A stretch of DNA of 64,000 nucleotides from a virus, in IMG/VR virus record IMGVR_UViG_3300047554_000447, positions 1 to 64,000 of that record. One strand, given 5' to 3'. The notes beneath the pieces were generated by a model that was not told where the DNA came from, did not search any database, and was given only the letters and a program-made list of their open reading frames with translations. Position 1 is the stretch's first letter. Each line of letters begins with the position of its first letter. The position numbers and the translations under genes were made by a program. This document shows, piece after piece, positions 2,304-44,101 of the stretch.

Positions 2304-2902
2304 AGAGAATTTTCTTTACCGGAGTACCCGGAAGTCGTTGGAGTGGTATAGCACAGATCATTGAAGATAATGTGCCAGGATTTAATACCACTGATAGAGA
2401 TGCAGAAAAAGAATATTCTCATCATGCATTTACTGGCCACAAAGGTGCATACTTTGGTACAGGTATGGAGTTTGAGGCGTACTTAGATAATCCAGAGTAC
2501 TTAGATCGGCCTTGGAAGGAACCGGGCGGAACTAGGTTGATCAAGAGCCACGACTGGGCCACCATGCTAGACCAGATTCAAGAAAAATATCCCGATGACT
2601 CTATCATGTTAGTATATCGTCCTGATATGACTAGTTACGCATGGTGGCACGAAGCTGGCGGCTTTCAAATCAAATATCCAGACTATCGTGCTTACAAGGA
2701 CAGCACTACAATGTTAGCTCACATCATGGAACAGAACAAGTGCATCTTAAAATTTGCTAGAAAGCATAATGCAGTATGGCATCACTTTGGTCGTGATTTT
2801 GTCTATAAATATTTCAATGTAAAAATTGAGGAAGTTGATAATCGATACGAAGATTGTCTAGTTTCTATTATAGGAAATCATGCAAGTAATACTGTTAACT
2901 GA
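2300..2902 (+). CDS. Sulfotransferase-fold-like P-loop protein, paralogue 1
   Basis: IFFTGVPGSRWS, LIKSH and MLVYRPD are placed like the 5'-PSB, catalytic His and 3'-PB motifs; similar to 8672 and 9990. Confidence 0.55.
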   Translation: MKRIFFTGVPGSRWSGIAQIIEDNVPGFNTTDRDAEKEYSHHAFTGHKGAYFGTGMEFEAYLDNPEYLDRPWKEPGGTRLIKSHDWATMLDQIQEKYPDDSIMLVYRPDMTSYAWWHEAGGFQIKYPDYRAYKDSTTMLAHIMEQNKCILKFARKHNAVWHHFGRDFVYKYFNVKIEEVDNRYEDCLVSIIGNHASNTVN

Positions 2903-4301
2903 TGTTACATTACCGGGCTATCTAAAATATGCAGGACCTTTTCGAATTGCTTCAGAATTAAGATCCAATGGGTTTACAGTCCAAATAATCGATTATGCTA
3001 CCCAGTGGTCAACTACAGAATTAAAAAATATTCTCAGAGACTATATCTCTGATCAAACCTTGTGGGTAGGATTTACTACCACTTTTAATTCTCCTTCGAT
3101 TAGTAGAATTAACAGGATGACCAAATCGGTGGATGTAAATAAAAACATTTACGTACATTATCTAGGTAGAAATGATATTCCGGAAATTCTAGATTTTATA
3201 AAAACTATTAATCCTAAAACAAAAATTGTTGCAGGCGGGCATCAAGCAGATAAATTTAGCCTAGAAAAAATGATTGATCACGTAGTGATAGGACAAGGAG
3301 AAACAGCCGCAGTTCATCTAACTAAATCATTGCTAGATAATCAGAAAGTAGAAAAATATCTTAACGAAAGTAAATTTCCTTATAATAATTTTATTTCCAG
3401 TACTATCGAATATGTTCCAGAAGATATAATCTTTCCTGGCGAGCACCTATCCATAGAATTTTCTCGAGGCTGTACTTTCAAATGTAGTTTTTGCAATTAT
3501 CCGTTGATCGGTCGAGATCTATGGGATTTTTGTAAACCGCCGACATTAATAGCTAGCGAAATACAAAGGAACTACGATCTTTTTAAAACACAAGGGTATC
3601 TTGTCACAGACGATACCATAAACGACAGCGAAGAAAAAATTGAACAGTTACACAAAGAAATAACTAAACTTCCGTTCTCGCTAACATTGTCCTCTTATGC
3701 CAGGCTAGATCTTCTCATAGCAAAGCCAAGAACTTTAGACCTACTATATGAAATGGGATTTAGAAATTTCTTTTTTGGAATAGAAACATTTAATCACGAC
3801 GCTGGAAAAGCTATCGGTAAAGGAATGCATCCTGATAAACTCAAAGCAGGTCTGGAAGATATTAAACGTAGATATCCTGATTTTTTAATCAGTGCAGGTA
3901 TTATATTTGGCTTACCCTATGAATCTCGAGACAGCATGTTGAATACTATAGAATATCTCAAATCTTCCCCTATTGATAATGTTTCGATAGCACCTTACGG
4001 AGTGACACGAACAAGCACTATCGGATCGAATCCAGAAAAATATCAATTTAAAGTTAACGGAAATTTAGACTGGACCAGCGCATGGACTACATCTGCAGAA
4101 GTAATCGATCTAGCTAAACAAGCAGATCAAATCCTCAGACCAAAGAACAAGGCAAACTGGACTTTTTTAAGTCGCCTCATGAACCTCGGCTACAGCTACC
4201 AGTACCTAGGAAATACTCCACTAACAGATATAATCTTCGATGCTGAAGAGCGAAAAGAAACATTAAGAATTCAGTACTACAAAAAAATTAGAAAATCTTA
4301 A
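2880..4301 (+). CDS. B12-binding radical SAM protein
   Basis: SRGCTFKCSFC (CxxxCxxC), N-terminal GGH and GQGE B12-domain motifs, DD, GIET. Confidence 0.85.
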   Translation: MQVILLTDVTLPGYLKYAGPFRIASELRSNGFTVQIIDYATQWSTTELKNILRDYISDQTLWVGFTTTFNSPSISRINRMTKSVDVNKNIYVHYLGRNDIPEILDFIKTINPKTKIVAGGHQADKFSLEKMIDHVVIGQGETAAVHLTKSLLDNQKVEKYLNESKFPYNNFISSTIEYVPEDIIFPGEHLSIEFSRGCTFKCSFCNYPLIGRDLWDFCKPPTLIASEIQRNYDLFKTQGYLVTDDTINDSEEKIEQLHKEITKLPFSLTLSSYARLDLLIAKPRTLDLLYEMGFRNFFFGIETFNHDAGKAIGKGMHPDKLKAGLEDIKRRYPDFLISAGIIFGLPYESRDSMLNTIEYLKSSPIDNVSIAPYGVTRTSTIGSNPEKYQFKVNGNLDWTSAWTTSAEVIDLAKQADQILRPKNKANWTFLSRLMNLGYSYQYLGNTPLTDIIFDAEERKETLRIQYYKKIRKS

Positions 4302-26701: not shown

Positions 26702-27897
26702 AAGTAAAAATATTTGTAGAAGAAGGCGATCGAGTTCCGTATGTGAACGGATTTAAAAAAGAAATCGCTGAAAAAATTATCATACCTCAGTATTATCCCG
26801 AAGGATTTTTTGGTCTATACGGCCCTCCATTCTTTAGAACATACGAACCTGTAAATGCTATTCCCGAAGATAAATTCTATTATCCAATAATTGTTAGTTT
26901 ATGGTTGATCATTGATAATATTGAGCACCTCGAAATACCAACTGAAATTATTTCTTGTATTAAATCTCAACAGGCAAAGATATTATTAGTAAATCCATTT
27001 GAGGGTTGGGAGTGGAGTTACTGGGAATCTCTAGTAGAGAAAATCGCAGATAAATTTAATTTATCATCAGACGATTTTGTCTGCCTAACAGGCAATCACT
27101 CTCCTCTAACTAATTTAAAATCTATCGTGTTTAATTTTTGGGAGTTTGGTTATCAATATAATCTCTTAGAAGAACATAGATTAAAATTTATCGAATCAGT
27201 TAAGAATCTAGACGCTAAACCTTATAAGTTTATCTGTCTAAATCGCAGGCCTCATTTTCACAGACTGGCTCTAGTACAGATGTTGTTTGATATCAAAGAT
27301 CAAGGAATCCTAACCTGTGCAAAACAAGGAGCAATCGCACCCGAATATTTTACTATGCATCTTAATAGATTGCAAAAATACGACGAAGGAATACATGATC
27401 GATTCGTTAAAAATATACTTCCAGTATTGCCGTTGACCGTCGACGACGGCATTGATGTTGAGATAGAAAATCCTGCACTGGATACTAAGTATGATAAATT
27501 TTTCGATAGTTATATTCATATAGTAACAGAAACATTTTTTGAACAACTCAATAATAGAATGTTTTTCAGTGAAAAGGCTTTTAAGCCGATGGCTATGTTA
27601 CAGCCATTTGTGTTTGTTGGTCAACGTCACTCATTAAAAACTCTCAGAGACTTAGGATACAAAACATTTCAACCATATATAGATGAAAGCTACGATGAAA
27701 TCGTCGATGACCACGACCGTATGCAGGCTGTGGTAAAAGAGATAAAAAGATTAACGGCTCTTGAACATGATCAGCTATGGGTACTAATACAGCGTATTCG
27801 CCCTATTATTGAACATAATTTTCTGCACATTTATACTAGAGCTGATATTATCAAAGAACAATTAAAATCTGAATTAATTAAAGGATTAGAAAAATGA
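26698..27897 (+). CDS. Putative glycosyltransferase-like protein (GT-B-type C-terminus)
   Basis: FICLNRR..HR, IVTET, FSEK..KP, GYKTF...DESYD; adjacent to ugd. Confidence 0.5.
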   Translation: MKVKIFVEEGDRVPYVNGFKKEIAEKIIIPQYYPEGFFGLYGPPFFRTYEPVNAIPEDKFYYPIIVSLWLIIDNIEHLEIPTEIISCIKSQQAKILLVNPFEGWEWSYWESLVEKIADKFNLSSDDFVCLTGNHSPLTNLKSIVFNFWEFGYQYNLLEEHRLKFIESVKNLDAKPYKFICLNRRPHFHRLALVQMLFDIKDQGILTCAKQGAIAPEYFTMHLNRLQKYDEGIHDRFVKNILPVLPLTVDDGIDVEIENPALDTKYDKFFDSYIHIVTETFFEQLNNRMFFSEKAFKPMAMLQPFVFVGQRHSLKTLRDLGYKTFQPYIDESYDEIVDDHDRMQAVVKEIKRLTALEHDQLWVLIQRIRPIIEHNFLHIYTRADIIKEQLKSELIKGLEK

Positions 27898-29123
27898 AAA
27901 TTGCGATGATTGGTTGCGGCAAATTAGGTTTACCCTGCGCCGAAGTGATGAGTCAACACTACGACGTAGTTGGCTACGATGTTGTTAAGGACCCGACTGC
28001 ACAAATACCTTTACTGGATTCCATTAAGGAAGCAGTCACTGGAAAAGATTTAATTTTCGTTGCAGTTCCCACGCCTCATGACCCAGAATACGGCGGTAGT
28101 AAACCTATCGCTGAAATGCCTTCTAAAGATTTTGACTACACTATAGTTAAGCAGGTATTATCCGATATCAATCAATATGTAAACAAGAATCAGTTAGTGG
28201 TACTAATTTCTACAGTGCTTCCGGGAACAGTAAGAGAACATCTCGCACCGAGGATCACTAATGCTAGATTTATCTATAATCCTTATTTGATTGCTATGGG
28301 ATCGGTTAAATGGGACATGGTCAACCCAGAATGTCTAATCGTTGGTACAGAAGACGGCTCACGCACTGGTGACGCAGGACTATTGATTGATTTTTACAAG
28401 CCGATCATGGAAAATGATCCTCAGATTAATGTAGGCACATGGGACGAAGCAGAAGCTATTAAGATCTTTTATAACACATTTATTTCAGCTAAGATTGGTT
28501 TGGTTAACATGATCCAAGATGTTGCTGAAAAGAATGGTAACATTAATGTAGACGTAGTAACTGATGCACTCAAGGCCGCAACACAAAGGATTACCGGGCC
28601 TCGTTATCTAACTGCTGGTATGGGAGATGGTGGTGCTTGTCATCCTCGAGACAACATCGCTTTAAGGTATCTAGCAGAAAGATTAGATCTAGGCTACGAC
28701 TTATTCCATGCAATTATGCACAGCCGAGACATGCAGGCTAAGAACATGGCTTTAAAATTAGTCAACTTGGCTAAAGAACATAAGCTACCTGTGGTCATAC
28801 ACGGTCGTGCTTATAAGCCCTATGTTCCATATACCATCGGATCTTACTCAGAATTAGTTGCTCATTTCGTTATGGATGAGGGTGTAGAACTACAGTATGC
28901 AGATCCAGAAACTGGAGACTTTGTCCAGAATGGTTTGGCGGCTGTTATTCTTTTAGCCCATAACCCAACCGTAACCTATTTTGGTACTGGTGTTGCTGTA
29001 AAACCACATGATTTCTATTTTGAGCCCGGAATTGGTTCTGTATTTTTGGACCCGTGGCGCATGACGCCGGATATTACTGGAATGACTGTTATCCATTACG
29101 GAAATACCCGAGTCCAAAAGTGA
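27894..29123 (+). CDS. ugd: UDP-glucose/GDP-mannose 6-dehydrogenase
   Basis: GCGKLG Rossmann motif, VAVPTP, STVLPGT, EAIK..YN, GGACHPRD catalytic Cys. Confidence 0.9.
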   Translation: MKIAMIGCGKLGLPCAEVMSQHYDVVGYDVVKDPTAQIPLLDSIKEAVTGKDLIFVAVPTPHDPEYGGSKPIAEMPSKDFDYTIVKQVLSDINQYVNKNQLVVLISTVLPGTVREHLAPRITNARFIYNPYLIAMGSVKWDMVNPECLIVGTEDGSRTGDAGLLIDFYKPIMENDPQINVGTWDEAEAIKIFYNTFISAKIGLVNMIQDVAEKNGNINVDVVTDALKAATQRITGPRYLTAGMGDGGACHPRDNIALRYLAERLDLGYDLFHAIMHSRDMQAKNMALKLVNLAKEHKLPVVIHGRAYKPYVPYTIGSYSELVAHFVMDEGVELQYADPETGDFVQNGLAAVILLAHNPTVTYFGTGVAVKPHDFYFEPGIGSVFLDPWRMTPDITGMTVIHYGNTRVQK

Positions 29124-31812: not shown

Positions 31813-32403
31813 GTGAAAAATATATGGGTAGTAGGCAACGGTCAGAGTAGATCTAGCGTTGCCCTAAATCAATTAAACGGTCTCGTTATTGGTTGTAACG
31901 CAATTCATAGAGATCATATCTGTGATGAATATGTTGCTGTAGATCGTAGAATGGTCGACGAAATACTCAACAACGAATTAAATCACAACATTCCAGTTTA
32001 CACTAGACCAGACTGGATAAACTATTATCAAGAAACTCCTAGCGTAAAGGAGTTGCCAAGACTTCCTTTTGATGGAACAAACAAAGCAGATCAAGCATTT
32101 CATTGGAACTCGGGACCATACGCTGTATTAGTTGCCGCAAATAAAGCACCTGAAAACATTCATCTCGTAGGCTTCGACCTATGGAGTAAGACTAGTTTTG
32201 TCAATAACATTTATAAAAACACACAAAACTATGCGGCGCACGATTCGAGAAAAGTAAGTCCAGATTTTTGGATCTACCAATTAAAAAAATTATTTGAACA
32301 CTTTGATGAAATAGAATTTATACAACATCAACAAACAGATTGGCAAATTCCCAAGCCTTGGATGGCGATCAAGAACTTGACAATTAGATACGATATTGTA
32401 TAA
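31813..32403 (+). CDS. MptE/sialyltransferase-like nucleotide-binding fold protein
   Basis: VVGNGQSR, IGCN, SG..A, HLVGFD. Confidence 0.55.
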   Translation: MKNIWVVGNGQSRSSVALNQLNGLVIGCNAIHRDHICDEYVAVDRRMVDEILNNELNHNIPVYTRPDWINYYQETPSVKELPRLPFDGTNKADQAFHWNSGPYAVLVAANKAPENIHLVGFDLWSKTSFVNNIYKNTQNYAAHDSRKVSPDFWIYQLKKLFEHFDEIEFIQHQQTDWQIPKPWMAIKNLTIRYDIV

Positions 32404-32404
32404 T
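32377..32404 (+). promoter_or_regulatory. sigma70 promoter for queD
   Basis: TTGACA-N16-TATAAT. Confidence 0.75.
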
Positions 32405-32410
32405 TACTAT

Positions 32411-32482
32411 TAGAGGACTTCGACGTTCACCCCTCTTTAAATACTCTGCATGTCATCAAACTTGCTACTTTTATAAGGAGAC
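32411..32482 (+). ncRNA. Candidate preQ1-like riboswitch / pseudoknotted 5' leader
   Basis: AGAGG/CCTCT stem, with loop GACGT able to pair with downstream ATGTC; lies between the promoter and the queD RBS. Confidence 0.4.
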
Positions 32483-32487
32483 TAGAG

Positions 32488-33012
32488 ATGGCAAAATATC
32501 TTTCTACAAAAACATACGGCAATGACCGAGGTCTTAGTTGTTGCTTTAGACAATGGCGTTCGACACATAGTCATTGCTCATTACTACATGGATACTCAAT
32601 CGGTATCAAACTAATTTTTGAATCAGAAACACTAGACGACCGTAACTGGGTCATGGACTTCGGTGGGCTTAAGGCATTCAAAGAGTGGAGCGAGTATATG
32701 TTCGATCATACTCTTGTAATCGCAGAAGACGATCCTCATCGAGCTATGTTCGAAAAAATGGCTGAACTTGGTCTCCAAGATCAAGGAGGTGTCTGTGATA
32801 TTCGTATCGTTCCTGCTGTGGGCTGTGAGAAGTTTTCCGAACTTGCTTATAAAGAAATGGAAACGATCTTACACATTTTCAAAACCGGCAACGACTATTA
32901 TTGCCCTAATGGACAAATATTCAAAGCAAGATATCCTGTTGGTCAAGGTGTTAAACTTCGTTCAGTTGAAGTTTTTGAACACGCAGGTAATTCCGCAGTA
33001 TACGAGATCTAA
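32488..33012 (+). CDS. queD: 6-carboxytetrahydropterin synthase (PTPS/QueD)
   Basis: HCSLLHGYS, WVMDFGGLK, FDHT, E, VEVFE. Confidence 0.88.
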   Translation: MAKYLSTKTYGNDRGLSCCFRQWRSTHSHCSLLHGYSIGIKLIFESETLDDRNWVMDFGGLKAFKEWSEYMFDHTLVIAEDDPHRAMFEKMAELGLQDQGGVCDIRIVPAVGCEKFSELAYKEMETILHIFKTGNDYYCPNGQIFKARYPVGQGVKLRSVEVFEHAGNSAVYEI

Positions 33013-33013
33013 T

Positions 33014-33151
33014 ATGATATACATATCAATTTTAGTTCTTGTAATATATGCTTTAATCTCTATAGACTACACAGCTCTAAAAATATATCTTGAAAAATTT
33101 GAAGAGGAATATATTTTAGAAATGCTAGCAGACTACGCAAGGACTAGATGA
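33014..33151 (+). CDS. Small membrane-anchored protein (45 aa)
   Basis: MIYISILVLVIYALIS..., probable true start within track ORF 32768-33151. Confidence 0.5.
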   Translation: MIYISILVLVIYALISIDYTALKIYLEKFEEEYILEMLADYARTR

Positions 33152-33843
33152 ATAAGTGGATTGTTTGCCTTAAACATGGGCAGAAATATTCTGTTGATTA
33201 TGTAAACAGACTCTACAACATGACTAAACGGCATTCCACTGTGCCGTTTGGTTTTGCTTGTATCACGGAGGATCCAAGCGGAATGGATCCAAACATCGTA
33301 CATATACCACTACCAAATCATAAGTTATCTGGTTGGTGGTATAAACCCTGGGTTTTCAGCAAAGAGATTCCTCTGGACGGAACACTATTGTTCATGGATC
33401 TAGATTTGGTTATCATTAAGAACATTGACAACCTTTGGTCTTACAGGCCTGGAAATTTCTGTATCATACGCGACTTTAATCGCAGTAGTATCAAAGATTG
33501 GCGTAAATTCAATAGTTCAGTCTTTAGGATAGAAAAAGGACAGCACCCCCAAGTTTGGGAAAATCTGATCAAAGATCTTGATCAGACAAAACGTATGCAT
33601 GGAGATCAAGATTGGATTTTCAGTCAACTGAGAAATTCTCATGTGTTTTGGCCCGAAGAATGGATTCAAAGTTATAAATGGGAAGTCCGAAACAAATCCG
33701 ACGTAGTCAGAGTTGGTAACAAAAGAATCTTTAAAGATGTAGCCAATCCACCTATACACGGTGACACCAACATCCTAGTATTCCACGGCGATCCAAAACC
33801 CGAAGAAGTCCAAGATCCTGTAGTCGTTCAAAACTGGCGATAA
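33148..33843 (+). CDS. GT-A fold glycosyltransferase (GT8-like)
   Basis: DLD (DxD), FNSSV, GDQDWI, VFHGDPKP. Confidence 0.8.
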   Translation: MNKWIVCLKHGQKYSVDYVNRLYNMTKRHSTVPFGFACITEDPSGMDPNIVHIPLPNHKLSGWWYKPWVFSKEIPLDGTLLFMDLDLVIIKNIDNLWSYRPGNFCIIRDFNRSSIKDWRKFNSSVFRIEKGQHPQVWENLIKDLDQTKRMHGDQDWIFSQLRNSHVFWPEEWIQSYKWEVRNKSDVVRVGNKRIFKDVANPPIHGDTNILVFHGDPKPEEVQDPVVVQNWR

Positions 33844-33880: not shown

Positions 33881-34498
33881 ATGAACTACGGTCACTATCC
33901 AATTTTCCCAACGCTAGTTAGTTGTTTCGATCTCAGCGATCATCCGGCGTTGCCTAGCGTAGTGGACATTATCGAAAATGGAGATCACAGTCTTCGACCT
34001 CACGGATTACTTAATAATGGTCTCAGCAGTATTGGAAATACCGATTTCCTTGCATCGGCTGAATTAAAGGATATTAAAAGTGCTATTCAAGACGCTGTTA
34101 ATATCTATACACAAGAAGCTGGTCTAGAATCCTGCACCGTGGCTCACAGCTGGTTTAATATTTTACATTCAGGGCATGAGGTAAAGCCCCATCGACACGA
34201 AGGTAGCGTAGTCAGCGGAGCATTTTATCCTTTTGTAGAAGAAGGTAGCGTGGGATTAAATTTTGAAAGTCCGTTGAAACCTGTAAAGATGAATGATATC
34301 GCAGAAAAGCAAACACAGTATACGTCTTATACTAGTACTATTCAAGTTAAGTCGGGTCTGTTGATTATTTTTCCTAGCTGGTTAATCCATTATACAGAAC
34401 AAAATCAAACTTCAAAAAGATTCACCATTAGCTTTAACACTATTAGAAATTCACTAAGAGACAATATCATTAAACTTTCTAAGGAAATCGATGACTAA
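33881..34498 (+). CDS. Putative 2OG-Fe(II) oxygenase (TIGR02466-like)
   Basis: IFPT, SWFN, PHRH..SG.FY, IFPSWL.H, R.TISFN. Confidence 0.85.
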   Translation: MNYGHYPIFPTLVSCFDLSDHPALPSVVDIIENGDHSLRPHGLLNNGLSSIGNTDFLASAELKDIKSAIQDAVNIYTQEAGLESCTVAHSWFNILHSGHEVKPHRHEGSVVSGAFYPFVEEGSVGLNFESPLKPVKMNDIAEKQTQYTSYTSTIQVKSGLLIIFPSWLIHYTEQNQTSKRFTISFNTIRNSLRDNIIKLSKEIDD

Positions 34499-35507
34499 AA
34501 AAATTGGCTTTGCCTGCAAGTGGATTGACGAACCGAGACAGGTAGACGGCATTCGGCCCAAGGATCCTGCTAAGGTTTACAATACGGGTGCTACAACTGT
34601 GGCTTGGCTTAATCGTCAGACTCAAGATGTAGCAGAAGATAAACTGTGGAGCCTAATGGAACAAAACATTGAGGCTACTAGAAAATTAGTTGAAAAGGTA
34701 GGGGGATTAAATGAACATCTTAGAATGGTACGTATCAGTTCTGATATCCTACCAGTTTACACTGAGCCTTCTTGGTGTTATTTTTGGCGTAAGCCTGACG
34801 TTAGGAATTATCTCGAAAAACACTTTAGTGAGGTTGGCAGGGTGGCTAGGAGTAGTGATGTCCGTTTATCTTTTCATCCCGGCCAGTTTACAGTTTTGGC
34901 AAGTGATAATGCAGACATTGTTACTCGGAGTATCGACGAATTTGAATATCACGTAGATATGGCTCGATGGATGGGCTACGGACAGAAGTTTCAAGATATG
35001 AAGATTAATGTTCATATTGCCGGTCGACAAGGTCCAGACGGCATCAGACGTGCATATCAACGACTAAGTCCAGAAGCACGTAACACACTAACTATCGAAA
35101 ATGAAGAAATTACACATAATCTTGACACCTGCTTGGAACTTGCTGATCTCGTTCCGATTGTACTTGACATACACCATCACTGGATTAATTCCGGAGAGTA
35201 TATTGATCCCGCTGATAGCCGTGTTAAGAAGGTTATTGATTCTTGGCGTGGTGTTCGTCCTACTTGCCACTTTAGTGTTTCACGGGAAGAATATTTTGAT
35301 GGCCATTCCGGACACCAGCGCCCCGATCTTCGGACGCTACTAGAATCAGGACACAAAAAAGCAAAACTCAGAGCACATTCTGATTTCTACTGGAATACAG
35401 CAGTTAACGAATGGGCGCTGAGTTTTTGGGATAACTTTGATATCATGTGCGAAAGCAAGGCTAAGAATCTAGCCAGCTTCACACTCTTCGAACAATCTAA
35501 AAAATAA
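34491..35507 (+). CDS. uvsE: UV damage endonuclease UvsE/UVDE
   Basis: IGFAC, RISSD, SFHPGQF, IENEE, LDIHHH, HFS, RAHSD, MCESKAK. Confidence 0.92.
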   Translation: MTKKIGFACKWIDEPRQVDGIRPKDPAKVYNTGATTVAWLNRQTQDVAEDKLWSLMEQNIEATRKLVEKVGGLNEHLRMVRISSDILPVYTEPSWCYFWRKPDVRNYLEKHFSEVGRVARSSDVRLSFHPGQFTVLASDNADIVTRSIDEFEYHVDMARWMGYGQKFQDMKINVHIAGRQGPDGIRRAYQRLSPEARNTLTIENEEITHNLDTCLELADLVPIVLDIHHHWINSGEYIDPADSRVKKVIDSWRGVRPTCHFSVSREEYFDGHSGHQRPDLRTLLESGHKKAKLRAHSDFYWNTAVNEWALSFWDNFDIMCESKAKNLASFTLFEQSKK

Positions 35508-35511
35508 TAAA

Positions 35512-35769
35512 TTATTCAGCTGTTGAAGTTTTAGCTTTAGGTTTACGACCGCCCTTTTTTGCTCCGCCAGCCGCTGGCTTTTTACCTTGTGGCTTTTTTG
35601 CAGGCTTAGGTTTTGGTTCTTCGATTGGAAGAGCCACTGCCGGTGCAGTTTCAACAACGGGTGGTTGTTCTACTTTAGCTTCGGGTGTAGTTTCAACCTT
35701 ATATGGGCATTCCTCTTTAACAGGTTCTGCTGGTTTGCCCACAAAGAATTCTTTAATTGCTTTGAACAT
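35512..35769 (-). CDS. K/P/A-rich low-complexity small protein
   Basis: GGAGG RBS and TAAATA on the minus strand upstream; histone-like basic tail. Confidence 0.6.
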   Translation of the reverse strand: MFKAIKEFFVGKPAEPVKEECPYKVETTPEAKVEQPPVVETAPAVALPIEEPKPKPAKKPQGKKPAAGGAKKGGRKPKAKTSTAE

Positions 35770-35810
35770 AATGTTCCTCCTTGTGAAATTATTTATAACT
35801 AAATATTACT

Positions 35811-36377
35811 ATGGCTTATAATTTCATCAAAAACGTTATCCTAAACGAAAATACACCTAGTAAAAAATTAGAATTACTGCCTTTACCTTACAGTAAAGGC
35901 GACTTAGAGCCTGCGATTTCTGAAGAAACTATCAATTATCATTATAGCAAACTAGCCAAAGCATATGTTGATCGTTATAATGATCGAGAAGGCGACCTAG
36001 ACTTCAATGAAGCGGGTGCGTTTTTACACAATTTGTTGTTCCCTCAATATAAAAAAGCAGAGGGAAAAAACGATCCTGATGGATCTGCCGGGGAATTCAT
36101 TATCAAGAAATATAAAACTTTTGAAAAATTTAAAGAAGAATTTTCAAAGGTAGCCATGGGTATACAAGGCAGTGGATGGGTGTACTTGGCTAAGAACGGC
36201 GAGATTAAAACCATTAAAAATCACCAGATTAAAAATGATATAATTCTACTTATTGATTGGTGGGAACATGCATGGGCCTTAGACTATCAATCAGATAAGA
36301 AAAAGTATCTAGAAAATCAGTGGAAGATTATTAACTGGAACGTGATTAGTTCTAGGGTCGGGCTTACAAGCGACTGA
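35811..36377 (+). CDS. sod: Fe/Mn superoxide dismutase
   Basis: LPY..LEP.IS, YH, LHN, GSGW, DWWEHA, INW. Confidence 0.92.
   Translation: MAYNFIKNVILNENTPSKKLELLPLPYSKGDLEPAISEETINYHYSKLAKAYVDRYNDREGDLDFNEAGAFLHNLLFPQYKKAEGKNDPDGSAGEFIIKKYKTFEKFKEEFSKVAMGIQGSGWVYLAKNGEIKTIKNHQIKNDIILLIDWWEHAWALDYQSDKKKYLENQWKIINWNVISSRVGLTSD

Positions 36378-36688: not shown

Positions 36689-44101
<7,413 letters not shown>

Follow-up and report, generated by a model that had tools for sequence, protein, structure and literature searches.

The leader of the queD-like gene of a freshwater jumbo phage, an RNA spanning positions 32412-32493 (+) of the window (the whole stretch of viral DNA that was analyzed, 64,000 nt), contains a small H-type pseudoknot. 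The structure is conserved in well over a hundred uncultured phages, its stems covary, it is tied to the downstream gene, and its pairings compete with others at the start of that gene. The leader is probably a cis-acting translational switch built on this pseudoknot, which would be stabilized by a ligand and would turn translation ON.

Organization of the leader

The features of the leader and its surroundings, in the order in which they occur, are as follows.

32377-32404 (+), sigma-70 promoter with perfect consensus: TTGACA at 32377-82, a 16-nt spacer and TATAAT at 32399-404
32412-32416 (+), P1 5' strand, AGAGG, with its partner at 32432-36
32417-32421 (+), L1, ACUUC; the family form is N-C-U-[U/C/A] plus 0 to 5 variable bases
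32422-32426 (+), P2 5' strand, GACGU, with its partner at 32450-54; five pairs including one G-U
32427-32431 (+), L2, UCACC; the conserved form is U-C-A-N-C, and the final C adjoins the P1 3' strand
32432-32436 (+), P1 3' strand, CCUCU; RNAalifold gives exactly these five P1 pairs
32437-32449 (+), L3, UUAAAUACUCUGC; A at positions 3, 5 and 7, Y at position 8, then the conserved UCUGC
32450-32454 (+), P2 3' strand, AUGUC, the switching sequence; it takes part in the P2 covariation, and 32451-54 also lie in the start-codon helix
32451-32493 (+), expression platform, a long imperfect hairpin with a predicted fold of -9.4 kcal/mol
32451-57 with 32487-93 (+), platform outer helix, UGUCAUC with GAUGGCA, containing the AUG at 32488-90
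32461-70 with 32475-85 (+), platform inner pairs, covering the Shine-Dalgarno (SD) sequence AAGGAG at 32475-80
32488-33012 (+), queD-like gene (174 aa), an open reading frame with its ATG at 32488 and a match to the Pfam PTPS family PF01242

The transcription start is predicted from the promoter to lie at about 32411, so that the RNA would begin at P1. The window holds five perfect sigma-70 sites, every one of them on the + strand, where 0.11 would be expected, and the longest leader among these five promoters is the one before the queD-like gene. Among the relatives, a sigma-70-like promoter ended 3 to 12 nt 5' of P1 in 30 of 153 leaders, most commonly with a gap of 7 nt. The aptamer in the window measures 43 nt from the start of P1 to the end of P2 (32412-32454). 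Its tail through the end of P2 is 18 nt long, with A at alternate positions and an added UCUGC.

When only the window sequence is considered, the pair of 5-bp stems does not exceed chance expectation. The single-sequence fold of the leader had a minimum free energy of -13.9 kcal/mol and a z score of -0.14, and 91 of 200 shuffled sequences folded equally well or better. The comparative data confirmed that the pseudoknot is real, since P1 and P2 both covary over more than 110 distinct homologous leaders. An earlier note on this DNA had drawn an H-type pseudoknot with exactly these two stems, and the covariation bears it out; every base named in it (P1, the loop GACGT, ATGTC and AAGGAG among them) was found to be placed correctly.

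Covariation and invariant bases in homologous leaders

Homologous leaders were gathered in two ways. When phage loci were collected by protein similarity alone, the motif was present in the leader of 72 of the 78 loci. Viral DNA was also searched with a pattern drawn from unpaired bases only, from which the P1 5' strand was left out. Among the 120 matches listed, 117 were real, and a PTPS/QueD homologue (27 to 94% identity) lay directly downstream in 115 of the 120. A perfect 5-bp P1 complement was present in 111 of the 117 real matches, although the pattern was blind to the P1 5' strand. At least 153 distinct aptamers were collected in total. A PTPS homologue lay within 1.1 kb of the aptamer in 151 of 153 cases, and the start codon was located 21 to 43 nt beyond UCUGC and the P2 3' strand in 146 of 151 leaders.

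Covariation was counted on two alignments. Alignment A1, made with MAFFT, has 149 rows that were chosen beforehand for at least four of the five P1 pairs, and it includes one spurious row (L088:9445-9499) and one row that is off by a column (L196). Alignment A2, with 114 distinct rows, has no gaps and a fixed length, and sequence alone served to anchor it. One variable pair of P1 in the 149 rows of A1 was CG (87), AU (40), UA (21) or GU (1), and the other was AU in 126 rows and UA in 17. The closing pair of P1 was G-C in 149 of 149 rows, at a base that the detection patterns required.

P2 was counted on A2 because A1 placed this stem in inconsistent registers. The five core pairs were paired in 82 to 90% of the rows, with four to six pair types each; the pair adjoining L2 was UA in 50 rows, CG in 19, AU in 18 and GC in 10. 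The covariation score of P2 was 0.613, compared with 0.224 for shuffled data. None of 500 shuffles reached this score, and registers slid along the alignment gave at most 0.222. The proportion of paired P2 cells was 71.7% versus 48.9% after shuffling. The core pairs were open in 10 to 18% of the rows, and the exceptions include a large subclass, GGCAU/AGGCC, with an internal mismatch and another subclass with A.A beside L2. Across the family, P2 has 4 to 5 bp (up to 7), the loop of P1 is 13 to 19 nt long and the aptamer measures 43 to 50 nt. Conservation and covariation of P1 and P2 were thus observed in the queD leaders of relatives, where the earlier note had suggested that the structure be checked.

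The unpaired bases of the loop and tail were also conserved. The first four loop bases of the 153 aptamers were CCTT in 41, ACTT in 37, TCTT in 34 and ACTC in 16, with other forms in the remainder. L2 read TCATC in 108 aptamers, TCACC in 25, TCAAC in 14 and TAATC in 6, and its last base was C in all 153, with U before it in 114, C in 25 and A in 14. The invariance of L2 is partly by construction, because the detection patterns required T[CA]A.C, and so is that of the A positions of L3, because the search pattern fixed them. The L2 form, its last C and the G-C closing pair were also seen by eye in all 72 motif leaders collected by protein, which form the one unbiased sample, and the A positions of L3 were likewise present in all motif leaders collected in that way. 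The consensus of the family tail, ahead of the P2 3' strand, is W-U-A-N-A-N-A-Y-UCUGC. A role of UCUGC as an anti-SD element was considered and rejected, as the pairing, judged by eye, was imperfect and would require a second pseudoknot in the window.

The tail sequence bears on a caveat raised in the earlier note, that TAAATA could simply mark a late promoter. In that case, this A/T-rich segment would act as a DNA signal, and the RNA structure would be incidental. The window does read TTTAAATA at 32436-43. However, the segment varies among relatives (ATACAAAT, TTACAAAT, ATATAAAC and others), with A kept only at the alternate positions, and TATAAATA is not enriched in the window, where it was found 4 times against 6.8 expected. 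Moreover, a DNA signal would leave the compensatory changes in two helices unexplained. The caveat is weak, and a late promoter is hardly credible as the explanation of the element.

The invariant bases also help to evaluate a structure that acts without a ligand, as a stabilizer of the 5' end, a translational enhancer or damper, or a thermosensor operating through P2 versus the start-codon helix. In the leaders with a recognizable promoter (30 of 153), the RNA begins close to the transcription start or at it, as 5' stabilizing hairpins do, and competing helices would answer to temperature or ions alone. A stabilizer or thermometer needs pairing, however; it has no need of 15 or more unpaired bases that are invariant and fixed in position. 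Metabolite sensing predicts what was seen, an exclusive link with a single enzyme family in very different phages. A ligand-independent role is, on this evidence, quite improbable.

Regulated gene and constancy of the RNA core

The sequence of the regulated product identifies it as a QueD-like protein of the PTPS family with a T-fold. It scored 46 bits against Pfam PF01242 (cut-off, 22.4; E value, 6e-12) and 36 bits against the NCBIfam QueD equivalog TIGR03367, below the cut-off of 89.25. The protein shares 52% identity with the QueD of Pseudomonas phage Iggy, which sits in a FolE-QueD-QueC-QueE-DpdA cluster, and the two share the motif CCFRQWR...HCSLLHGY. The zinc motif of QueD and PTPS proteins is CxxxHGH; the window protein has CSLLHGY instead, and the Iggy QueD has the same variant. 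The complete relatives encode FolE and a QueE-like radical SAM enzyme, and QueC and TGT/DpdA were not found in their genomes.

The first gene after the aptamer can be a canonical CxxxHGH QueD, a type B paralogue, a cupin or a methyltransferase, and it differs from the window-type protein in 5 of 151 leaders. The RNA core remains unchanged while the regulated protein drops to 27% identity and switches subfamily. A constant core combined with a drifting protein is better explained by an invariant small ligand than by a co-evolving protein partner.

This constancy also bears on the alternative that the pseudoknot senses no metabolite but serves as an operator, bound by an RNA-binding protein of phage or host or by the QueD-like enzyme itself. 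A protein site would be equally compatible with the conserved single-stranded bases and the covarying pseudoknot, the motif is restricted to phages, and phages often use translational repressors. The autoregulated mRNA leader of T4 gene 32 contains a pseudoknot that is the nucleation site of gp32, and it resembles the queD-leader motif as a pseudoknot in a phage 5' leader by which translation of the following gene is controlled. It differs in that it is a protein site without the preQ1-I-like loop and tail pattern, whereas the queD-leader motif is constant across divergent regulated proteins. The constant core over proteins of 27 to 94% identity and several subfamilies, and the 5 of 151 leaders followed by a gene other than that for the window-type protein, argue against an operator. 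Self-regulation would require covariation of protein and RNA, and none was seen; the layout, in addition, matches a known ligand-binding fold. A protein operator is consequently unlikely, although less so than a structure without any partner.

Competing pairings and predicted direction of switching

The leader has the generic hallmarks of a riboswitch, namely, a conserved covarying aptamer, invariant unpaired bases, variable platforms that share an aptamer strand, and related downstream genes in divergent genomes. In the proposed mechanism, the 5-bp P1 would carry the loop, in which the 4 to 5 bases before the conserved UCAYC would pair with the 4 to 5 bases after the tail to form P2. The P2 3' strand could alternatively pair with the start codon, as predicted for the window, or with the SD sequence, as predicted for other phages, and P2 and the sequestering helix would be mutually exclusive.

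The P2 3' strand also supplies the 5' side of a helix whose other side holds the AUG or the ribosome-binding site (RBS). The predicted pairing between the P2 3' strand plus 3 nt and the RBS window averaged 6.0 pairs over 146 leaders, compared with 2.8 for a shuffled 8-mer, and at least three pairs between the P2 3' strand and the RBS window were predicted in 144 of the 146. The platform designs that use this strand include GUCAUC/GAUGGC, GUCAUUGUU/AACAAUGGC, UACCAUAUU/AAUAUGGUA, CCUAUG/CAUAGG and UGUCUU/GAGACA. As modeled, the designs differ but their logic is common, in that all draw on the P2 3' strand. A swap control gave 4.75 versus 6.04 and is weak, because many leaders have the same platform class.

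The outer sequestering duplex of the window was predicted at -5.7 kcal/mol and P2 at -2.8 kcal/mol. Because P2 is predicted to be weaker than the sequestering helix, it would need help to form and the default state would be OFF. Since the two share a strand, formation of the knot should free the start, which is an ON design; we infer the direction of switching from these modeled pairings. A stabilizer of the pseudoknot would release the RBS and turn translation ON. The predicted switch is modest, as blocking the P2 3' strand raised the mean unpaired probability of the RBS window from 0.46 to only 0.58, and an alternative hairpin in the window (-6.8 kcal/mol) is still able to cover the AUG. Two further points count against the ligand-stabilized ON switch that we favor: ON control is unusual for a biosynthetic gene, and the physiological sense of any ligand is not obvious. 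In translational ON riboswitches, such as the adenine (add) riboswitch, an aptamer strand is shared with the helix that hides the SD sequence or the AUG, and the ligand frees the RBS. The logic proposed for the phage leader is the same, but add has a three-way junction rather than a small pseudoknot, another ligand and another gene class.

Relation to the preQ1 riboswitches

Membership of the pseudoknot in preQ1-I, -II or -III was not supported. The Rfam 15 models gave no match to the window at gathering score and none at an E value of ≤10 on 32300-32600, and no match at gathering score was obtained in 20 homologous loci (123,138 bases). The model RF00522 gave no match at an E value of ≤10 on positions 2880-3030 of relative L005 or 2900-3030 of relative L034, and preQ1-III gave none in any Rfam search (window, 20 loci and single relatives). 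The sole Rfam trace was a match of preQ1-II (RF01054) in L034, with 16.4 bits and an E value of 1.7 against a gathering score of 47; much of the identity in this alignment falls in the SD-AUG stretch. The preQ1-type variant proposed in the earlier note, for which a check of this Infernal type had been named, is hence retained for its layout, which resembles preQ1-I, and not for membership, as no Rfam preQ1-I, -II or -III match was found.

According to a review, the P1 stem of preQ1-I has 5 bp with G-C as the closing pair, its tail contains A, and a cytosine sits immediately 5' of the P1 3' strand; this specificity cytosine is preceded by U in type I and by A in types II and III (PMC11625349). 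The minimal preQ1-I aptamer is given elsewhere as about 34 nt with an adenine-rich tail of 12 nt (PMC3273816). Compared with these descriptions, the phage motif is similar in its H-type pseudoknot, its 5-bp P1 with a G-C closing pair, the C directly 5' of the P1 3' strand (mostly after U or A) and the pyrimidines right after the P1 5' strand. It is similar also in the A-containing tail after P1, the 3' end of which pairs with the loop as P2, and in the link to a gene of the queuosine-pathway type. The C at the end of L2 occupies the position of the preQ1-I specificity base and, by this analogy, is a candidate specificity base.

The same descriptions also reveal differences. The phage motif is 43 to 50 nt long with a loop of 13 to 19 nt, compared with an aptamer of 34 nt in preQ1-I, and its tail has alternating A plus an extra invariant UCUGC instead of a run of A. 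Its P2 is a full covarying helix of 4 to 5 bp (up to 7) that does not contain the SD sequence; the 3' strand serves as an anti-start or anti-SD sequence, and the predicted outcome is ON, not the OFF response of preQ1-I, in which the bound ligand masks the SD sequence or produces a terminator. The phage motif, unlike preQ1-I, has no covariance-model match and occurs in phages only. The modes of regulation described for preQ1 riboswitches in the available text of the review are limited to transcriptional pausing and SD occlusion, and "activate" is a word that the text does not contain (PMC11625349). In the same review, preQ1-II is an HLout pseudoknot of four helices that is roughly double the size of class I and restricted to Bacillota (PMC11625349). 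It is like the phage motif in being a pseudoknot before a queuosine-related gene, and the consensus loop of its model begins with CUU. It differs in the four-helix HLout fold and the limitation to Bacillota, as far as described there, and the window gave no match to it.

A true but very divergent preQ1-I member, which would bind preQ1 or preQ0 and repress its gene like all described preQ1 riboswitches, would account for the H-type topology, the G-C-closed 5-bp P1, the C 5' of the P1 3' strand, the A-containing tail and the queD-like gene. Against it stand the lack of an RF00522 match (at an E value of ≤10 on stretches of 131 to 301 nt and at gathering score on the window and 20 loci) and the length of 43 nt versus a 34-nt minimum and the 18-nt tail with the extra conserved UCUGC. 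In addition, the 5-bp covarying P2 lies 21 to 43 nt 5' of the start and competes with RBS sequestration rather than causing it, and the complete genomes lack QueC and TGT/DpdA. Such a member is very unlikely.

Occurrence in phage and cellular genomes

The motif occurred as one strong copy per genome, at 56 to 63 bits in each of five genomes. No second regulated gene was found in these five; the next best model match had 20.3 bits (G004:174030-174063). The motif was absent from nine QueD loci of cultured phages (Iggy, ACP17, X1, Motura, PhiXhv-15, Phosso, R5C, Bhz51 and Me-ZS1), with a best score of 8.1 bits in a model scan with filters off, and blastn of the locus against cultured phages gave three short coding matches only. 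In cellular genomes, one real instance was found among the first 120 matches listed, and the others look like chance. This lone instance (L267) is on a 5.5-kb contig binned as Bacteroidetes. In these scans, the motif was almost entirely limited to viral contigs. The open literature, supplementary lists of candidate motifs possibly excepted, yielded no description of a leader RNA of phage queD/PTPS genes.

Candidate ligands and implications

The stabilizer of the putative switch is most likely a small molecule with a guanine-like face; the invariant bases of the loop and the tail would grip it much as they do in preQ1-I. Candidates from the FolE, QueD and QueE branch are dihydroneopterin triphosphate, CPH4, CDG, preQ0 and preQ1. 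To our knowledge, there is no known riboswitch for dihydroneopterin triphosphate, CPH4 or CDG. More specifically, we suggest tentatively, as a possibility short of even chances, that the leader represents a phage-only riboswitch class that senses an intermediate between GTP and pterins or 7-deazapurines and switches a QueD-like enzyme ON. Such a class may derive from, or have converged on, the preQ1-I fold with inverted logic, and it would serve, in these freshwater jumbo phages, a FolE-QueD-QueE pathway without QueC and DpdA.

ON-type aptamers as small as this one (about 43 nt) would be useful as parts for synthetic regulation. If a ligand is confirmed, the leader would represent a new riboswitch class carried by viruses, not cells, and abundant in freshwater phage metagenomes. 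If the proposed mechanism is true, the output of a preQ1-I-like pocket would have been changed from OFF to ON, and the pocket may also have been adapted to a different guanine-like ligand. The identity of that ligand would reveal which metabolite is monitored by large phages that have FolE, QueD-like and QueE-like enzymes but not QueC or DpdA.

Leader of the queD-like gene in the window

The record of the window is 86 kb long (completeness 24%, CheckV), and the window is its first 64 kb. The stretch recurs in freshwater metagenomes. Its relatives include contigs of 300 to 380 kb, indicating that the window phage is a jumbo phage. The promoter, paired segments and ribosome-binding site (RBS) read by the earlier note were all located in the sequence where it had placed them:

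32377-32382 and 32399-32404, TTGACA and TATAAT, with a 16-nt spacer
32412-32416 and 32432-32436, AGAGG and CCTCT (P1)
32422-32426 and 32450-32454, GACGT and ATGTC (P2)
32475-32480 and 32488, AAGGAG and the ATG

Further features from the analysis are:

32488-33012 (+), PTPS/QueD-family ORF (Pfam PF01242, 46 bits)
1359, 15413, 17283, 22162, 29124, 32377 and 33847 (+), sigma-70 promoters by consensus match, five perfect and two near-perfect

The five perfect sigma-70 promoters, all on the + strand, compare with 0.11 expected, and the promoter of the queD leader is among them. The distance from its -10 element to the ATG is 83 nt; most of the other sigma-70 promoters of the window precede very short leaders of about 5 to 35 nt, some without a visible Shine-Dalgarno sequence (SD). 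That the leader is simply a late promoter has practically no likelihood. The single-sequence RNA fold of the window leader was no better than that of shuffles (z -0.14), and thus one sequence proves nothing.

Occurrence of the leader upstream of PTPS genes

A protein-based scan of IMG/VR gave 595 relatives, of which the best 80 (76-95% identity) were kept; the 78 with at least 130 nt upstream were examined for the leader. It was present in 72 of these 78, immediately 5' of the start in 68, before an N-terminally extended start in three (L007, L009 and L011) and before a second PTPS paralogue standing first in one (L039). The leader was not found in the other six (L008, L015, L040, L041, L061 and L069). 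Upstream of position 3001 in L069, the platform, the helix downstream of the aptamer (AUCAAACUUACUC...GGAGGCAAGAGAUGG), comes straight after the promoter, and the aptamer is gone. This natural variant is a ready-made control for regulation.

A degenerate pattern of loop L2, the P1 3' strand and loop L3, with the P1 5' strand and P2 left out, matched at least 120 viral stretches. A PTPS homologue lay within 900 nt downstream in 115 of the 120 matches listed (tblastn E < 1e-5, 27-94% identity); 117 were real as judged by P1 and the platform, and three were chance matches. Pooling and duplicate removal left at least 153 distinct aptamers. Among the matches listed, 151 of 153 had a PTPS homologue within 1.1 kb, and in 146 of those 151 the start codon was 21-43 nt past UCUGC.

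With a covariance model built from the 149-row aptamer alignment, the record of the window and four large relatives each gave one strong copy (56-63 bits). A weak match (20.3 bits, E 4e-4), the highest after these, was at G004:C1:174030-174063 (+) in the genome of a relative. The motif was not found at nine QueD loci of cultured phages, most of which have no leader at all. Cellular genomes (185,579) yielded one real instance among the 120 matches listed; the 5.5-kb contig that carries it belongs to a metagenome bin.

Structure of the candidate aptamer

RNAalifold predicted exactly P1 from the 149-row alignment. The variable P1 pairs were CG 87, AU 40, UA 21 and GU 1 at one position and AU 126 and UA 17 at the second, in rows pre-selected for at least four of five P1 pairs. 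The unbiased figure is a perfect P1 complement in 111 of the 117 real pattern matches listed. P2 was tested without structure-guided alignment, in 114 distinct, gapless 38-nt rows positioned by the conserved UCA.C and UCUGC. Pairing between the five bases preceding UCA and the five that follow UCUGC holds in 82-90% of rows, and each core pair occurs as four to six pair types (UA 50, CG 19, AU 18 and GC 10 for the pair adjoining L2). The covariation score over seven pairs was 0.613 versus 0.224 in shuffles, none of 500 reaching it, and was at most 0.222 in slid registers; of the 114 rows, only a subclass forms the two outermost pairs (31 and 48 rows). P1 and P2 thus covary across homologous leaders, indicating that the H-type pseudoknot proposed earlier is correct.

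Conservation is also strong in the unpaired parts. L1 starts with N-C-U-[U/C/A], and L3 reads W-U-A-N-A-N-A-Y and then UCUGC, replaced by UCUUC in one class. L2 is UCAUC in 108, UCACC in 25, UCAAC in 14 and UAAUC in 6 of the 153 aptamers among the matches listed. This loop invariance is partly imposed by the search patterns, and the protein-fetched leaders carry the same bases. A purely structural role would not call for so many invariant unpaired bases, and a ligand-free element is improbable. A protein operator would be somewhat less improbable, yet the RNA core stays constant while the proteins behind it diverge, which speaks against self-regulation. We infer a small-molecule ligand for the aptamer.

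Comparison with preQ1 riboswitches

Neither the window nor 20 homologous loci gave a match to any Rfam 15 family at gathering score. Searches of short stretches at E <= 10 gave only noise, including preQ1-II at 16.4 bits versus 47 in L034. The motif shares with preQ1-I, as PMC11625349 describes it, the H-type fold and an A-containing tail. It also appears to share a G-C pair closing P1 and a C (mostly after U or A) that adjoins the P1 3' strand on its 5' side, both partly imposed by the search patterns. It differs in its length (43 nt versus 34 nt in PMC3273816), loop length, fully Watson-Crick and covarying P2, extra UCUGC, position relative to the SD and predicted switching direction. The motif resembles a preQ1-I-type pseudoknot, yet is not a preQ1-I member, and a true preQ1-I OFF switch is very unlikely. 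Of the preQ1-type variant suggested by the earlier note, the fold and its likeness in layout to preQ1-I stood, but the covariance search of the window gave no match to a preQ1 family at gathering score. No prior description was found in the main texts of the literature searched or in Rfam 15.

Expression platform and predicted switch

In the window, UGUCAUC (32451-32457), four of whose seven bases come from the P2 3' strand, is predicted to pair with GAUGGCA (32487-32493), a segment that includes the AUG, and pairs further inside cover the SD. Other phages have the same overlap in other sequences: GUCAUUGUU with AACAAUGGC, UACCAUAUU with AAUAUGGUA (codon 2 changes alongside), CCUAUG with CAUAGG (SD covered) and UGUCUU with GAGACA. 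In partition functions of 146 leaders, the P2 3' strand plus 3 nt formed a mean of 6.0 predicted pairs with the RBS window, and at least three in 144. Shuffled 8-mers gave a mean of 2.8, with at least three in 208 of 438. Swapping 8-mers between leaders gave 4.75, a weak control, since platform classes recur among leaders.

These predictions suggest that P2 formation and RBS sequestration exclude each other. In the window, the sequestering duplex is the stronger (-5.7 versus -2.8 kcal/mol for P2), so that whatever stabilises the pseudoknot would free the start. Together they point, with moderate confidence, to an ON switch. The confidence is only moderate because blocking the P2 3' strand gave only a small rise in the predicted accessibility of the RBS (0.46 to 0.58, 146 leaders) and because an alternative hairpin in the window is predicted to still cover the AUG.

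The platform segment AUCAAACUU[G/A]CU...GGAG[A/G]C[U/A]AGAGAUGG (window 32458-32486 and relatives) is near-unchanged even before proteins that share as little as 28-30% identity with that of the window, as in L090, L113 and L131. This suggests that the leader is swapped as a module or is under further constraint.

Neighbouring genes

The queD-like gene is followed by a 231-aa ORF without a match in Pfam or NCBIfam. In the ESM Atlas it matched viral clusters auto-named glycosyltransferase (feature score 0.99, structure TM 0.94-0.95), which may include its own cluster, so the match is only a lead. Of 152 motif loci, 45 have a homologue in their flanks. A role in glycosylating pterins or bases is conceivable. 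Features of this region are:

33148-33843 (+), 231-aa ORF
33222-33253 (+), 13-pair terminator-like hairpin and T-rich run inside that ORF
27894-29123, 33881-36377 and 36743-44101, UDP-glucose/GDP-mannose dehydrogenase, 2OG-Fe(II) oxygenase, UvdE UV endonuclease, Fe/Mn superoxide dismutase and a 2452-aa ORF

Putatively regulated protein and pathway

Canonical QueD carries CxxxHGH and a first histidine. In the phage QueD-like proteins these are replaced by CxxLHGY and C[CA][FY]RQWR, as also in QueD of Pseudomonas phage Iggy. The window protein is below the NCBIfam QueD cut-off. It is 52% identical to Iggy QueD, which sits in a FolE-QueD-QueC-QueE-DpdA cluster, and both have the unusual motif CCFRQWR...HCSLLHGY. 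In some phages, one aptamer precedes a tandem array of two or three PTPS-family paralogues.

QueD-like variants and tandem PTPS paralogues (sequence comparison): window 32488-33012; L322 3992-4450; L039 2495-3001; L182 6231-7172
Other first genes after the motif: type B paralogue (L039), canonical CxxxHGH QueD (L182), cupin (L169), CmoB-like methyltransferase (L176) and a protein without assigned identity (L183)

FolE and a divergent radical SAM protein are encoded by three near-complete relatives (98-100%). The radical SAM protein matches five QueE models (E 1e-12 to 1e-8) but falls far short of the curated cut-offs. Both enzymes are near the QueD-like gene in these jumbo-phage genomes (G001, locus L331 2023-13048; G002; G003), with a HIT protein, a subtilase and two methyltransferases nearby. 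QueC was not found in the near-complete relatives, with only partial Pfam-family matches of 15-28 bits and none to Iggy QueC; neither were TGT and DpdA. Divergent forms of any of these enzymes could have been missed. The flanks of 152 motif loci contained FolE in 34-36, QueE-like in 26-33, QueC in 1 and DpdA in 0 (tblastn). With FolE and a QueE-like enzyme present and the later enzymes not found, unless too divergent, the pathway in these phages seems either to end at CPH4 or CDG or to branch off there.
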